A DNA stretch of 38,227 nucleotides from a virus. Lineage: Duplodnaviria; Caudoviricetes. Each line of letters begins with the position of its first letter. Positions within the stretch are counted from its first letter, which is position 1. Shown here piece after piece: positions 1 through 37,059 of this stretch. The notes below the pieces were generated by a model that worked only from the letters and a program-made list of their open reading frames with translations, did not search any database and was not told the DNA's origin. The position numbers and the translations under genes are program-made. Location of the stretch: IMG/VR virus record IMGVR_UViG_3300005263_000001, positions 1 through 38,227 of that record; one strand, given 5' to 3'.

Positions 1-44
1 TGATCACCGCAGCATGGAACGGCGTCGAACAATCGGACCTGCAT
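1..44 (-). CDS. 5' part of a Lar-like (restriction alleviation) zinc-binding protein, probably continuing at the window end (38227..38094)
   Basis: GGAGG RBS then ATG at 44; MQVRLFDAVPCCGD runs off the left edge; the right edge carries a matching C-terminal half (VRCIHCG...ADAVTEWN). Confidence 0.55.
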   Translation of the reverse strand, partial: MQVRLFDAVPCCGD

Positions 45-62
45 GGTTCCTCCAGATGGACA

Positions 63-311
63 TTACTTGTTGGCCTGGAAAAGCAGTGTCTTTGCTGTGA
101 TACTCGCTTCTCCCCCCATCACTTCGGCATACCAGACAGATCCGTCCTGGAGCCTGACAACAAACTTAAATGACGAGCCGGGGACAGCAGTGACTTCCGC
201 CGTTTTCATTTCTTCAATGACACACTGACGGACTTTGGCATCGTTGTAGCCGTCCCCGCACCCGACAAGGGCAAGGACGCAAACGGTGGCGATAAGGAAT
301 CGAAGTTTCAT
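63..311 (-). CDS. Small predicted lipoprotein (possible superinfection exclusion)
   Basis: MKLRFLIATVCVLALVGC: basic N-terminus, hydrophobic core, lipobox LVGC; AGGAGG RBS. Confidence 0.7.
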   Translation of the reverse strand: MKLRFLIATVCVLALVGCGDGYNDAKVRQCVIEEMKTAEVTAVPGSSFKFVVRLQDGSVWYAEVMGGEASITAKTLLFQANK

Positions 312-350
312 GTGCCCTCCTGGGCGATGGGGTGTGAATGTGAACAGCCG

Positions 351-509
351 CTACTCGGCGGGTCCGATGGTGATTTCAGCGATCATGCGCGGGGAGGGTT
401 GGCACCCACACTCGGGCAACGGGGCGAACTTGCGAGGGCAGTTCTCGGCGTGGTCTTGGTCACGGATCTGTTTCAGGGCGTTGTAAAGCTGCTCGTAGGT
501 GGGTCTCAC
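351..509 (-). CDS. Hypothetical 52-aa protein (not in ORF track)
   Basis: GGAGG RBS + GTG; MRPTYEQLYNALKQIRDQDHAENC...ECGC...; fills the gap between two cassette boundary motifs. Confidence 0.65.
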   Translation of the reverse strand: MRPTYEQLYNALKQIRDQDHAENCPRKFAPLPECGCQPSPRMIAEITIGPAE

Positions 510-530
510 GATGCCTCCCGCATCTGGACA

Positions 531-779
531 TTACTTAGCTGGTGGATAAGGGACTCGCGGAAGCTGGAGGCGGTCTGTCTCGTCATCCAGCCCACAGTGG
601 CACTCGGAGTAGTAGGCGCAGCGCCAGCTATCGTGCTTGGCGAACTCTGCGATAAGTTCAGCCGCCATCTTTAACTTGCCCTGGAGGGCATCAATCTCAA
701 CCGCCTGATCCGCCACCTTCAGAGCGAGGTCCGCGCCCTTCTTGATGGCATCGCTCAGGGCCTTCTGCGCTTCGGTCAT
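531..779 (-). CDS. Hypothetical protein, coiled-coil N-terminus with H/C-rich tail
   Basis: GGAGGAACC-ATG at 779; HDSWRC...ECHC. Confidence 0.7.
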   Translation of the reverse strand: MTEAQKALSDAIKKGADLALKVADQAVEIDALQGKLKMAAELIAEFAKHDSWRCAYYSECHCGLDDETDRLQLPRVPYPPAK

Positions 780-796
780 GGTTCCTCCAGTGGACA

Positions 797-1156
797 TCAG
801 CCTTCAACCCAATGGCGCTCGGCGCGACCAACAGGCTGAAGATTGGAGATCATGGCGGTGAAGCCCCCCGACTGATAGAAGTCCACCTTCACGGCGCGGT
901 CATCGAGCCGCTCACAGTAGACATGGTGCCCATCGGGGTAAACATCGTGCGGTCCATGCCCCGTTCCACCGCCCTCGTTGGCAGTCTTGTAGACCACGTA
1001 GCGACCCTCCAGGTAGGCGAACTCGCCCCCAATGGTGATGTCGTGGTGGGTCAGGTTGAACGACCCCTTGCAGTTGGTGTAGACGAAGTGCTCGGGAATG
1101 TCGGCATAGACCCTGTGCCCGGCCTTCAGTTCAATGATGTCGCCTTCTTTGAGCAT
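797..1156 (-). CDS. Hypothetical phage protein
   Basis: MLKEGDIIELKAG... globular-looking 119-aa ORF; start chosen at the ATG after GAAGG. Confidence 0.7.
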   Translation of the reverse strand: MLKEGDIIELKAGHRVYADIPEHFVYTNCKGSFNLTHHDITIGGEFAYLEGRYVVYKTANEGGGTGHGPHDVYPDGHHVYCERLDDRAVKVDFYQSGGFTAMISNLQPVGRAERHWVEG

Positions 1157-1194
1157 TGGGATACCTTCTGGTTGTGGGGTGGATCTGGACAAGA

Positions 1195-1350
1195 TCAGTT
1201 GGATTCAAGGAGTTCGCGGATGTCATCCTCATCGAGGCCGTTTAGCCCTCCCTTGGCGACCTCGCGCACAAGGATCTGGATGATTCGTTCGCGCTCATCT
1301 TCTCTGGCCTGGGCCAGTCGGATCATTTCGGTGGGGGTTGCGGTCGCCAT
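1195..1350 (-). CDS. Hypothetical 51-aa protein (not in ORF track)
   Basis: AGGAG RBS + ATG; MATATPTEMIRLAQAREDERERIIQIL... Confidence 0.6.
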   Translation of the reverse strand: MATATPTEMIRLAQAREDERERIIQILVREVAKGGLNGLDEDDIRELLESN

Positions 1351-1373
1351 CGTCAGGCTCCTGGACAGGTGCG

Positions 1374-1547
1374 CTAGGCACCAAAGGGTTTCGTGGCTTC
1401 AAATACTTCCCGGTCCATCGCCCCGTATTCCTTGGGGAACCGGTTGAAGCAATCGAGCAGGAAGGCTTGATCTTCTTTGCTGAGGGGTCGCCCTTCCTTG
1501 GAACGGCACCTCAGTTCAAAGCAGCGGCGGCGGGTTTCAGGAGGCAT
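1374..1547 (-). CDS. Hypothetical protein (may start at 1571)
   Basis: MPPETRRRCFELRCRSKEGRPLS...; lies between two TGTCCA motifs. Confidence 0.55.
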   Translation of the reverse strand: MPPETRRRCFELRCRSKEGRPLSKEDQAFLLDCFNRFPKEYGAMDREVFEATKPFGA

Positions 1548-1570
1548 AGCGGGTGTCTCGATCATGGACA

Positions 1571-1915
1571 TTACGGTTTCGGGAAGTTCACAAAGACAGG
1601 GATGGATTGTTCTGTCAGCGGTATCCGTGCAAGGTCGGCGCAACCCTCGGGATCAAGGGCAAGCTGGGCGATGGCGTGGACATTCTGGGTAAGCCCACCG
1701 TTGCAGGCGATGGTTAGGTCGCGGATCTGCTCAAGGGCTTCCTGGTAGGAATCACGCTCGGGTTCAAACTGTCGATACCAGCGATCAAATACAAGCCGGA
1801 ACCCGCACCCGACCATGTAGCGGCTTATTGCTTTGGCTGTTTCTCCAGGAACGGCGTTCTTCTGCTCGGTAGTCATGCGGTTGAACAATTCGGCAATCAG
1901 GTCGGCTGGGTTCAC
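1571..1915 (-). CDS. Hypothetical protein
   Basis: AGGAG RBS + GTG at 1915; the longer track ORF overlaps the tRNA-like element, so it is trimmed. Confidence 0.65.
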   Translation of the reverse strand: MNPADLIAELFNRMTTEQKNAVPGETAKAISRYMVGCGFRLVFDRWYRQFEPERDSYQEALEQIRDLTIACNGGLTQNVHAIAQLALDPEGCADLARIPLTEQSIPVFVNFPKP

Positions 1916-1934
1916 TTCATGCTCCTGGACAAGA

Positions 1935-2033
1935 GGGCGAGGGCTGGCTTTCCACCAGCGTCTCCGGGGCATGACCCCGGCGCTCTTTTTACTGCGGATT
2001 GTCCGGTCTCCGTCAGCACTAAGCTACCTCGCG
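1935..2033 (-). tRNA. Degenerate tRNA-fMet(CAT)-like element with enlarged D-arm
   Basis: Acceptor GCGAGG/CCTCGC with unpaired C1; D-stem GCTT/GAGC; anticodon arm CCGGG-GTCATGC-CCCGG; variable region AGAC; T-arm GCTGG-TGGAAAG-CCAGC; no encoded CCA. Confidence 0.7.
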
Positions 2034-2046
2034 TGATATTGGACAG

Positions 2047-2217
2047 TTACGGTTTCGGGATGAGATGGCAGACGCAGCGAGGACGAGGCATCGCGCAGGC
2101 TGGGCAGATGCCACAATTTGAATGGCCGACTGTCCCCGGGACCGAACAGTTCACGCGGTCTAGGTCATCATCCTCGGGCTTGAAGCCGAACCGGGATTCA
2201 AATTCTTGTTCAGTCAC
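2047..2217 (-). CDS. Cys-rich 56-aa hypothetical protein
   Basis: GGAGG RBS + GTG; DDLDRVNC...GHSNCGICPAC...RCVCH. Confidence 0.7.
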   Translation of the reverse strand: MTEQEFESRFGFKPEDDDLDRVNCSVPGTVGHSNCGICPACAMPRPRCVCHLIPKP

Positions 2218-2278
2218 GATGCCTCCGGTAGTGGACAGTAGTGCGTTGATGGTTCCGATAGTCGTAGATGCGCGGACA

Positions 2279-2509
2279 CTAGGTGGGGTTTTGGGTCTCG
2301 TCCACCCAAGCTCCGTAGCGGGTCCGGTCCATCGGCTTGATGGTCTTGCCCCTCTCAACCCAGTAGCCATGAACCAGCCTGTTATGCCGCTTCAGAGCCG
2401 CCTGCTGAGCCCTGTGTATGGCCTCTTCGCGTGATACGGGCTTGGTGGTTTTCCAGATGTAGGCGGCGATGGCGATGCCGAGGAGGATGAGGGTGATGGT
2501 CATCGTCAC
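2279..2509 (-). CDS. Small membrane-anchored hypothetical protein
   Basis: N-terminal hydrophobic helix ITLILLGIAIAAYIW followed by a basic region. Confidence 0.65.
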   Translation of the reverse strand: MTMTITLILLGIAIAAYIWKTTKPVSREEAIHRAQQAALKRHNRLVHGYWVERGKTIKPMDRTRYGAWVDETQNPT

Positions 2510-2512
2510 TCC

Positions 2513-2656
2513 TTAGTCGGCCGTGTAGTAGTCGTGACGATGGAACCCGATGCAAAACGGTCCAAGGTGGATAAACAGGGCTCGGTCTGCCTTCTCCCAG
2601 GTCCAAGCGATACCCAGGAGCCAGCGGGTCAGGTCGAAGTGTGGGTGTATGGTCAT
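2513..2656 (-). CDS. Hypothetical 47-aa protein
   Basis: MTIHPHFDLTRWLLGIAW...; ATGA overlap with the upstream small ORF. Confidence 0.5.
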   Translation of the reverse strand: MTIHPHFDLTRWLLGIAWTWEKADRALFIHLGPFCIGFHRHDYYTAD

Positions 2657-2738
2657 CGGCCCTCCCGGTGCTGGGCTTCATTGCGCAAGATCCACCCAAC
2701 CTGGACCCCGATCAGGAACGCTGCGATCAAGTCGGCGC

Positions 2739-3050
2739 TCACTTCCCCTCCTGGTACCATTCGAGGGACTCATTAATGAAGGCGATTTGGTATGGGTTGA
2801 CGCTGGTGTTGTCTCGCAGGAACTCCAGCGCCCCAGCCAAGGCTTCAGCCTTCTCTTTTAGCCTCTCGGCATCGGCTCGGGCGGCGTCACGCTCGGCGCG
2901 GTAACGCTTCCACCTGGACCCCGGCGAGGCAAGTTCCTCGCGGAGTGCCTGGACCTCGGCCCGAAGTCTGACAACCTCCGGGTGAGGCTGGACCCGCTCG
3001 ACAATGTGGTCACCAATCTCATGGGGTTCTGGCATGGGCGGCGTGGTCAT
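2739..3050 (-). CDS. Coiled-coil hypothetical protein
   Basis: EVVRLRAEV...AERDAARADAERLKEK; ATG overlaps the stop of the upstream gene. Confidence 0.65.
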   Translation of the reverse strand: MTTPPMPEPHEIGDHIVERVQPHPEVVRLRAEVQALREELASPGSRWKRYRAERDAARADAERLKEKAEALAGALEFLRDNTSVNPYQIAFINESLEWYQEGK

Positions 3051-3646
3051 GGGCGCTCCTGGGCGTGGGATGCGAGTCGGATCAGTGCTTCTCGGAACTC
3101 GGGCGGCGTTCTCTGCCTCTGCTTGCTGCTCATGCCTTCGATGATTCCCCGCTTGCGGGTCTTCTCGTAGCCGCGCCGAGACAGACTGCGAGGGCATAGC
3201 CTCTGTTCTGCTGGCCCCCAAATGAGGTCGTTAGGCTTTGGCCCGACATAGAGCAACCAGGTGGTCTTCCTGGCCGGGTGTCCGTAGTGGGCCTGATCCA
3301 CTTGACAGACCCACTCGCCTTCCTTGGCGCGGGTCCATCCAGTGGGGAAGGGCCGCGTCAGACCGAAGAACTCCCACGCCAGGGAATCCTTGGGATGCTC
3401 CAGCACCCCACCCCACAAGCGAACAGAATGTAGGGCAGTGGCGAAGCACCCACCATCCGCGCCGGGTGTCTCGACCTGGTTGGTCGGGCAACCCTTGGCA
3501 TACCTACCCCACCTCTCGCAAGGCGGGTGAGCGATGACGGGGTGCGGCCCTGGATAGGTTCTGGCGTCCCGCTCAATGTCCCAAGGATCAACCCCAGGAA
3601 CATCGAAGTAGGCTCCACCCTTCTCCACGAAGAGGGTGGCAATCAT
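3047..3646 (-). CDS. Divergent, short DNA cytosine-5 methyltransferase-like protein
   Basis: IAHPPC (motif IV PC), VLEHP (motif VI-like), QAHYGH..KTTWL (motif VIII-like); no clear FxGxG. Confidence 0.65.
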   Translation of the reverse strand: MIATLFVEKGGAYFDVPGVDPWDIERDARTYPGPHPVIAHPPCERWGRYAKGCPTNQVETPGADGGCFATALHSVRLWGGVLEHPKDSLAWEFFGLTRPFPTGWTRAKEGEWVCQVDQAHYGHPARKTTWLLYVGPKPNDLIWGPAEQRLCPRSLSRRGYEKTRKRGIIEGMSSKQRQRTPPEFREALIRLASHAQERP

Positions 3647-35890: not shown

Positions 35891-36871
35891 TCAGGCCCAC
35901 AGTTCCTCCTGTCTCTTGGCCTGTTCTTCCTGGCTGGGTTCTGAGTATTTCATCGTGGTGGATATGTTCGCATGGCCCAGCATGGCCTGGACATCCTTGG
36001 GGTTCGCCTTGGCCCTCAGGTGCAGGGTTGCGAAGGTGGCCCTCAAGCGGTGCGGCCCCATCCCGCCACGGCAGACGGTCCTGTAGAGCCAGCCTTCGGG
36101 GTGTGGCTTGCCGCCCTTGCCGGGGAAGATGAGGCCCAGCCGTGGGAGTTCTGCGCCTGCATATGCGTTGAGTTCATGCATCAGCGCAGATGGGATTGGG
36201 ATACGGCGGACCCGCTTGGACTTGGTTCGGCCCCCAACGATGAAGGTGTCACCCTCGATCCACTCCCACCGGGCCTGCCGAAGCTCCCCGATGCGGAGGC
36301 CCAGCAGCATCATCATGGCGAGGGCCGGCCGGATCTGAGGGTATCGCTTCTTATCGGCCACCTGATTCAGGAAGGCCCTCCAGTCAGTGACCACAGGGCG
36401 GCGCTTCTCCTGGACGGGCAGGAACTTCAGGGTGCATGGCATCTCGCGGATCAGCTTGTCTGCCAGGGCCCAGCGCATCCAGAGCTTCAGGTAGCTGATG
36501 ACCAGGTTCGCCGTGGTCGGGGCATGGGTCTGCGTGAAGCCGGATGCCCACTCCTGCACCATCGAGGTTGTGATGCGGTCCAGGGGCACCTTGAGCAGTT
36601 TCTGGAGGTGCCTGGTGGCCTTGGCTGCGTTGTCCCGGTGCGCCTCGGAGGCTAGGGCACCCTTGGCCTTCGTCCACATCTTGATGACCTCGCCAAGGGT
36701 TGGAGCCTGCCCCTTCCCGATGCCCATGAGGATGGCCTGCCTACGGGCTTCCTCAAGCACCAACTTGGCCGTGGGGAGGTCGGTTGCCCCGGTTGAGCCG
36801 CTGTAGTCCCGTCCTCCCGCTGAGAAGCGGTAGTGCCAGACGAGGCCACGCTTGGTCAACCATCTAGGCAT
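35891..36871 (-). CDS. int: Tyrosine recombinase / integrase
   Basis: GLRIGE (R), TKS (K), PHRLR (HxxR), LGHANISTTMKY (H, Y); N-terminal arm-binding-like WHYRF. Confidence 0.93.
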   Translation of the reverse strand: MPRWLTKRGLVWHYRFSAGGRDYSGSTGATDLPTAKLVLEEARRQAILMGIGKGQAPTLGEVIKMWTKAKGALASEAHRDNAAKATRHLQKLLKVPLDRITTSMVQEWASGFTQTHAPTTANLVISYLKLWMRWALADKLIREMPCTLKFLPVQEKRRPVVTDWRAFLNQVADKKRYPQIRPALAMMMLLGLRIGELRQARWEWIEGDTFIVGGRTKSKRVRRIPIPSALMHELNAYAGAELPRLGLIFPGKGGKPHPEGWLYRTVCRGGMGPHRLRATFATLHLRAKANPKDVQAMLGHANISTTMKYSEPSQEEQAKRQEELWA

Positions 36872-37059
36872 CAGAGACTCGCTAGTTTCTTGTTGAAGTC
36901 GGCAAGTGCGCCCTGGATCTCGTAGGGCATTTCCCACATATGGTCGTTTGCTTCAACCGCTTCCACAAGTTTCAGGATCTCGGGCCATAGGGCCTTCATC
37001 TCCGCTTCGCCACAGTCTTGCCCCATAGCGATCAGGGCCTTCAGTTCATCCAGCGTCAC
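36871..37059 (-). CDS. Hypothetical protein between xis and int
   Basis: Overlap-coupled at both ends. Confidence 0.6.
   Translation of the reverse strand: MTLDELKALIAMGQDCGEAEMKALWPEILKLVEAVEANDHMWEMPYEIQGALADFNKKLASL

Follow-up and report, generated by a model that had tools for sequence, protein, structure and literature searches.

A short stretch near one end of a tailed-phage genome looks like an initiator tRNA with an additional hairpin, and it raises the question of what such an RNA is (a tRNA, the remnant of one, or a tRNA-like molecule put to a different use) and how it came to lie by itself between two copies of the word TGTCCA. We addressed this question computationally in the window, i.e. 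the whole 38.2-kb virus record (38,227 nt; 60% G+C). Matches to PHROGs among the 51 proteins scanned are those of a temperate tailed phage and include integrase, RecT, repressor-like, resolvase, terminase, portal, capsid, and DNA-ejection proteins.

A cloverleaf with a fifth arm fills a 114-bp unit

The unit comprises 114 bp between the TGTCCA sites at 2045 and 1931 and consists of a 6-nt leader, a 99-nt body, and a 3-nt trailer (Table 1). In the minimum-energy fold as well as in the centroid fold, the minus strand from 2033 to 1935 forms a cloverleaf whose D-loop bears an extra arm. All 20 pairs of the four stems hold, and these stems are an acceptor stem of 6 bp (pairs 2-7) with C1xC72 left unpaired, a D-stem of 4 bp, an anticodon stem of 5 bp in which G29-G30-G31 pair with C39-C40-C41, and a T-stem of 5 bp; the variable loop has 4 nt. 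The extra arm is built of 5 bp, a bulged A, 4 bp, and a 10-nt loop, and all nine of its pairs have a probability of 0.96-1.0. The fold has a minimum free energy of -47.7 kcal/mol (z -4.06; 0 of 200 shuffles as stable), compared with z -1.24 for the opposite strand, and it persists when 200 nt of flank are included on each side (stem probabilities 0.8-1.0). A descriptor of the cloverleaf (20 pairs, tRNA geometry) matched once in the 38-kb window and matched in 1 of 150 shuffled windows. In the anticodon loop, G32:C38 is predicted to pair (probability 1.0), as is U33:G37 (0.87). We conclude that the tRNA-like fold at 2033-1935 is confirmed; the first-pass annotation had described it correctly as a cloverleaf between two TGTCCA sites with a 35-nt D-loop containing an extra stem, a T-loop TGGAAAG, a G at position 32, and no encoded CCA.

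By comparison with the tRNA-Met of phage PHB09, the D-loop can be read as an ordinary AGTG-GTA loop into which 24 nt (1993-2016) have entered between G18 and G19 and which has gained four further A. When the insert was compared with the genome, the 15 longest exact matches listed were all the insert itself, and the comparison is uninformative below 10 nt. Archaeal tRNA introns are marked by a bulge-helix-bulge motif, in which two 3-nt bulges surround a 4-bp helix. The arm shows no such motif, its 5-bp helix being accompanied by a 2x4 internal loop and a 1-nt bulge. As the genes are moreover of bacteriophage type, we rejected an archaeal-type intron.

Table 1 Features of the unit and of its surroundings in the window
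Feature	Positions	Strand	Remark
Upstream TGTCCA junction word	2040-2045	-	Match of the X1 contig stops exactly at 2045
Leader between junction and C1, 6 nt	2034-2039	-	Also in the X1 copy
tRNA-like body, positions 1-73 plus 26 net extra nt, 99 nt	1935-2033	-	
Acceptor 5' strand, C1 unpaired; G2:C71, C3:G70, G4:C69	2027-2033	-	
D-loop, 35 nt	1986-2020	-	
Extra (fifth) arm, 9 bp, one bulge, 10-nt loop at 1999-2008	1990-2018	-	
Anticodon arm, three G:C pairs, CAT at 1971-1973, G32, G37, C38	1964-1980	-	
T-arm, loop TGGAAAG without T55 and C56	1943-1959	-	Loop 3 nt shorter in the X1 copy
Acceptor 3' strand with C72, C73, and 3-nt trailer; no CCA	1932-1942	-	
Downstream TGTCCA junction word, then GGAG and next gene	1926-1931	-	Word kept in X1
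Upstream neighbour, 56-aa gene, phrog_24363, unknown function	2047-2217	-	
Downstream neighbour, 114-aa gene	1571-1915	-	Database gene call starts at 1915; internal TGTCCA at 1682
Array part at contig start	57-2237	-	10 TGTCCA sites, 9 likely junctions
Array part at contig end	37322-38093	-	4 junctions, beside integrase gene
Integrase gene	35891-36937		Adjoins array part at contig end

The RNA is only partly initiator-like and has lost the tRNA elbow

Standard tRNA finders, which had been proposed as a check on the fold, miss the unit. ARAGORN reported no genes over the window, and Rfam gave no tRNA match at E<=1 over the window or at E<=10 over 1900-2070; a genome search with RF00005 likewise returned no candidate, the unit lying under the Rfam thresholds. 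At lowered thresholds ARAGORN produced dozens of noise calls, which we did not use.

With bacterial initiator tRNA-fMet the RNA shares the CAU anticodon, the three pairs G29:C41, G30:C40, and G31:C39, an unpaired C1, and G2:C71, C3:G70, and G4:C69. It differs from this tRNA by C72 in place of A72 (the 1:72 mismatch is C1xC72, not C1xA72), C73 in place of A73, an elongator-type C11:G24 in place of R11:Y24, G32, the absence of elbow and CCA, and the fifth arm. An excerpt of PMC9976931 names R11:Y24 and A73 as initiator determinants, and further determinants used in this comparison come from part of PMC11497404. The unit is only partly fMet-like: the fMet identity elements claimed for it stand as far as the anticodon arm and the unpaired C1 are concerned and do not extend to R11:Y24 and A73.

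Among the letters general to tRNAs, the unit has kept U8, A14, G15, U33, T54, and A58; U33 and G37 fit a canonical anticodon loop, and position 32 holds a G where none of 12 relatives (see below) has a purine. The elbow is altered in both halves, with G18-G19 split by the insertion and T55 and C56 now G, and no CCA is encoded after position 73. According to an excerpt of PMC4810234, the G19:C56 elbow is a feature that the ribosome recognizes and that RNase P and RNase Z recognize as well. Because G18-G19 is split, T55-C56 is gone, and CCA is absent, we consider it unlikely that the unit works in translation or as a good RNase P/Z processing signal; the latter idea, raised in the first-pass annotation, is weakened because both enzymes read an elbow of which both halves are changed.

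The unit descends from a family of phage tRNA(CAT)

A BLAST search with the unit led to the tRNA-Met of Pseudomonas phage PfAn1 (PV364321) and thence to related CAT tRNAs in phage records. We picked 12 CAT-anticodon tRNAs of phage records from the top matches, excluding the unit itself, and the model made from them scores the unit at 29.9 bits with an E-value of about 1.6e-5, which is rough and favourable to the unit because the 12 sequences were chosen via similarity chains starting from it; the next match in the window has 11.3 bits. On sequence grounds we place the origin of the unit in a family of phage tRNA(CAT) whose anticodon stem is of the initiator type, which upholds the earlier suggestion of a tRNA-derived RNA. 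Specifically, acceptor pairs 2-7 are identical to those of Pseudomonas phage PaMx74 (JQ067093), the anticodon stem to that of Bordetella phage PHB09 (MN103401) and of the contig L138 described below, and the T-stem to that of the PfAn1 tRNA-Met, while the D-stem is of the PfAn1/PHB09 type. The PfAn1/PHB09/PaMx74 group resembles the unit in its CAT anticodon and in a 1:72 pair that is weak or absent in several members; unlike the unit, these tRNAs keep G18G19, TTC, a pyrimidine at position 32, and mostly A73 and CCA, and their D-loops have 7-9 nt. No TGTCCA words flank the tRNA regions of PHB09 and PaMx74.

Two of these tRNAs are unannotated and were found by ARAGORN: a tRNA-Met at 1182-1256 in a segment of MN103401 (PHB09; T1xT72, T73, and an elongator-type D-stem) and one at 777-852 in a segment of JQ067093 (PaMx74). 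Position 33, which is otherwise near universally U in tRNAs, is C in 2 of the 12 CAT tRNAs, those of PfAn1 (1181-1256) and Donnerlittchen (151-227).

A relaxed family pattern run on viral contigs gave seven matches, of which one is an armed relative (L138), one an ordinary tRNA (L137), and five are due to chance. L138 (IMGVR_UViG_3300010346_001313) encodes a five-armed phage tRNA(CAT) at 1055-1147 (-) that is missed by ARAGORN and lies in the head-gene region of a phage fragment, between a portal-like and a prohead-protease-like frame. Like the unit, it has C1xC72, the same anticodon stem, a TCATGC loop with G37, a D-loop hairpin, and no encoded CCA; unlike the unit, it keeps the D-loop GG, C56, and A73, i.e. 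a near-normal elbow, and has no TGTCCA flanks. Its arm consists of tandem CTGC repeats. Because the arms of L138 and of the unit are unrelated in sequence, D-loop arms probably arose more than once.

The unit is likely a mobile non-coding cassette of a TGTCCA array

The leftward early genes of the phage finish in a row of tiny units, which leaves the window at the contig start and resumes at the contig end beside the integrase gene. TGTCCA occurs in this row at 14 sites on the minus strand and at none on the plus strand, with 1.1 expected from the rest of the genome. The site at 1682 is probably not a junction because the coding sequence in which it lies is conserved in relatives of the gene, leaving 13 likely junctions; a stop triplet lies <=7 nt upstream of 11 of these 13. 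No known counter-defence function was found for the array genes among PHROGs and Pfam matches, BLAST of the array against phages gave no full-length match, and RecT had no close relative in the genome or viral contigs searched.

A second copy of the unit is present in a public DNA run from a freshwater metagenome (X1), in which a 151-nt contig matches 1935-2045 with one substitution and a 3-nt gap; this copy is a single contig of read length and depth 2.7, and each of its differences may be an error. X1 otherwise holds little of the region (four short pieces over 1-3200). Beyond the upstream TGTCCA the contig continues with 27 foreign nt that end in a stop codon; at the downstream side the trailer and TGTCCA are kept and the sequence then differs over only the 4 nt available. 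Within the unit, the X1 copy has a T-loop shortened by 3 nt to 4 nt, U40 for C40, which turns G30:C40 into a wobble pair, and an extra CCA triplet directly after C72. Because the X1 neighbours differ beyond both TGTCCA words, the unit likely moved as a whole, with breakpoints at TGTCCA, and the 114-bp TGTCCA-bounded unit is likely a mobile non-coding cassette. The notion that a cassette of this array need not code for protein is thus supported by the same unit standing next to different neighbours. A non-coding unit, in turn, favours exchange at the DNA word itself over a mechanism that needs a reading frame.

Several further features of the array were noted. A one-mismatch variant of TGTCCA at 341-346 (-) also behaves as a junction, and an X1 contig shares the leader at 309-341, switches sequence at the 341-346 word, and has a different gene after the ATG at 311. 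The same 13 nt end two different genes just before TGTCCA (2046-2058 and 1571-1583, -), and the peptide IPKP also ends two database relatives of the 1571-1915 gene; because of these common gene ends, gene ends may be exchanged together with the junction. A small gene with Cys-x-x-Cys-like motifs appears split over the contig ends (1-50 and 38094-38227, -) with mismatched frames, and its 3' piece had no Pfam match. Because the longest contig on record for a protein neighbouring this split gene has 38,300 nt, some bases are probably missing at the contig-end join. The array gene at 800-1156 (-), phrog_7702, has relatives in 122 phage records, mostly of Salmonella and Escherichia phages, with the best one (61%) in Shewanella phage 1/44.

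Scans of large collections gave no further copy. These scans used exact patterns, which miss divergent copies, and the collections may leave out the records nearest to the window. In viral contigs (IMG/VR), the exact 27-mer of the D-arm and the combination of an fMet-type anticodon arm with a TGGAAA loop each gave no match, none of 26 matches to a pattern of the 5' end and loop and none of 35 TGTCCA-flanked CAT arms was real, and none of 25 TGTCCA-flanked normal T-arms lay in an array, one being an ordinary tRNA-Leu in a tRNA cluster. All four matches to a long D-loop pattern in viral contigs were rejected as artefacts of tandem ordinary tRNAs. Also set aside was a tRNA-like half in a non-coding stretch of a viral contig (L119, 1545-1600), in which the T-arm is normal and the D/anticodon part is reduced; its TGTCCA flanks look like chance. 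None of 43 matches in metagenome contigs (JGI) was real, genome contigs (GTDB) held no copies, and BLAST of the unit against phages and plasmids gave no full-length match. Among the IMG/VR, JGI, and GTDB contigs scanned with these exact patterns, we found no second family member without an elbow. In the literature we found nothing on TGTCCA cassettes, D-loop-armed phage tRNAs, or tRNA decoys of this kind, although supplementary tRNA tables could hold some.

Changes private to the unit lie almost all outside the stems

Compared with 13 relatives (the 12 of the model and L138), the unit differs in 6-14 of 40 stem letters, with 2-6 pairs changed on both sides, and its only private stem state is a U13:G22 wobble. 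Its private changes lie almost all in loops and ends: G32, G55, G56, G60, and C73 each occur in none of the 12 relatives. Covariation, a check suggested in the first-pass annotation, was examined in an alignment of eight members: both partners are changed in 11 of 21 pairs, a number reached by 0 of 500 shuffles. Most of this covariation is seen between ordinary tRNAs, and it may be older than the loss of tRNA function. In a rough simulation of neutral decay, 5-6 substitutions spared every pair in 2.5-11% of trials, and for 3-5 indels the probability that all fall outside helices was 4-15%. The pattern of private changes speaks moderately, and no more than moderately, for selection on structure, since it was the perfect cloverleaf that drew attention to the unit and the test is biased accordingly.

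What the RNA might do

Because no promoter-like site lies near the unit, its RNA is probably made as part of the leftward early transcript, which implies that it would be transcribed along with the phage early genes. The reading that accounts best for the data, which we hold tentatively and at less than even confidence, is that the RNA is a tRNA mimic preserved in structure and perhaps serving as a decoy. Such an RNA would be a poor substrate for RNase P, RNase Z, and the ribosome, all of which read the elbow, while its stable body, which the fifth arm and the run of A may stiffen in place of the lost contact between D-loop and T-loop, would display a CAU loop on a stem with three G:C pairs. 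This is the part of initiator tRNA addressed by MetRS and by VapC-type nucleases, and the RNA could thereby sequester or block a host enzyme of this sort in the course of infection. Excerpts of the sources consulted describe the CAU anticodon as the main MetRS determinant (PMC9976931), several VapCs as cutting tRNA-fMet between anticodon stem and loop (PMC8522696), and phage tRNAs as carrying anticodon-loop changes linked to such nucleases (PMC10264068). Several findings speak against a decoy. U40 of the X1 copy weakens G30:C40, an initiator mark that a decoy should keep; the predicted G32:C38 and U33:G37 pairs would leave a smaller anticodon loop; two copies that are otherwise 99% identical disagree in T-loop length and CCA, as under drift; and neither a second elbow-less family member nor a known counter-defence gene in the array was found.

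The X1 differences fit a decaying pseudogene, the strongest competitor of the decoy reading although we regard it as somewhat unlikely: a five-armed phage tRNA(CAT) like that of L138 would have been captured between two TGTCCA words and would be losing T-loop, discriminator, and CCA as neutral cargo. Two close copies differ exactly at the T-loop and CCA, one of them with U40, and in a parsimony reading the T-loop came about when TTC was lost, TGG was duplicated, and one letter was substituted; the rarity of the unit in the collection scans and the coexistence of an arm with D-loop GG and C56 in L138 agree with it. It has to explain, however, why 20 of 20 pairs and 9 of 9 arm pairs hold while about ten changes sit in loops and ends, and why the unit is intact in two different gene neighbourhoods. 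Alternatively, the RNA could be a working non-canonical tRNA-Met that is processed, receives CCA from the host, is charged by MetRS via its CAU, translates, and resists host nucleases via G32/G37. The initiator marks and general tRNA letters that it has kept, a relative (L138) that looks functional, and the existence of some natural tRNAs without an elbow, in mitochondria (PMC7609411, in part), argue for this, and we nevertheless find it very unlikely, given the split G18-G19, the lost T55/C56, C73, the missing CCA, the purine at position 32, and the 4-nt T-loop of X1, in addition to the reading of the elbow by bacterial ribosomes and RNase P described in the excerpt of PMC4810234.

Roles that owe nothing to tRNA recognition were weighed as well. 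The fold, which survives inclusion of its flanks, might protect or space messages as a structural element of the early transcript or might terminate antisense transcription on the plus strand, where the anticodon hairpin and a T-run supplied by the four extra A score as terminator-like (1964-1980). We consider this improbable: a structural element would need neither the CAU anticodon nor an acceptor stem, the genome has 11 such terminator-like sites against 6.4 +/- 2.7 in shuffles, which makes the match weak, and the T-run begins 5 nt past the core stem. Pairing of the two unusual loops with TGTCCA words in transcript or DNA, which would regulate or guide cassette expression or exchange, has a very slim chance of being correct. 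The arm loop and the T-loop each agree with the reverse complement of TGTCCA at 5 of 6 letters, a double match that only 4 of the 4096 hexamers achieve and that arose in 0.12% of 200,000 trials with shuffled loops; on the other hand, the matches were found after the fact, duplex energies are ordinary (2-13% of background windows pair equally well), the T-loop match arises from the family T-stem end plus the duplication, in X1 half of it lies within the stem, and L138 has no such loop match. A bolder form of the idea, to which we attach just as little probability, is a two-loop adaptor in which the D-loop arm and the rewritten T-loop come together at the elbow and join two junctions or mask the ribosome-binding sites that follow. 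Were this true, the unit would be an RNA component of an unexplained TGTCCA gene-shuffling system, carried as a cassette of its own. Finally, a gene for a small protein could overlie the old tRNA, or the next gene could extend across it at the N-terminal end, since a GAGG precedes a frame of 35 codons (GTG 2019 to 1912) that overlaps the next start, both X1 length differences are of 3 nt, and the X1 substitution is silent in the frame from ATG 1972. This is hardly credible: the GAGG sits within the acceptor stem, both frames cross the downstream junction, where X1 differs and before which other units mostly stop, the database gene call gives the neighbour 114 aa, and the 3-nt events fit the TGG repeat and the CCA triplet.

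Implications and comparison with known systems

We regard the unit as valuable mainly as non-coding cargo of the TGTCCA system. It indicates that TGTCCA arrays of phages can carry a non-coding RNA as a unit, offers a minimal substrate of 114 bp for finding the exchange enzyme, and adds a tRNA look-alike that is invisible to standard tools. Should the favoured decoy reading hold, with the unit binding or blocking MetRS or a nuclease of initiator tRNA, it would represent counter-defence by means of an RNA decoy, a mode that differs from the replacement of cut host tRNAs by phage tRNAs.

Two known systems invite comparison. Integron gene cassettes are single promoterless units in one orientation that are swapped at a short word and can have non-coding cargo. 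The TGTCCA array is alike in its promoterless units of one orientation; it differs from integrons in that neither an attC hairpin nor any repeat longer than the hexamer was found and in that the only integrase in the genome is of phage type. The unit itself can be compared with the nuclease-evading phage tRNAs of van den Berg et al. 2023 (PMC10264068), which, as far as an excerpt of that paper describes them, are likewise phage-borne and changed in the anticodon loop. Such tRNAs are proposed or reported, in the available parts of PMC10264068, PMC11555353, and PMC10802454, to stand in during translation for host tRNAs that have been cut, whereas the unit has lost the features needed for that.
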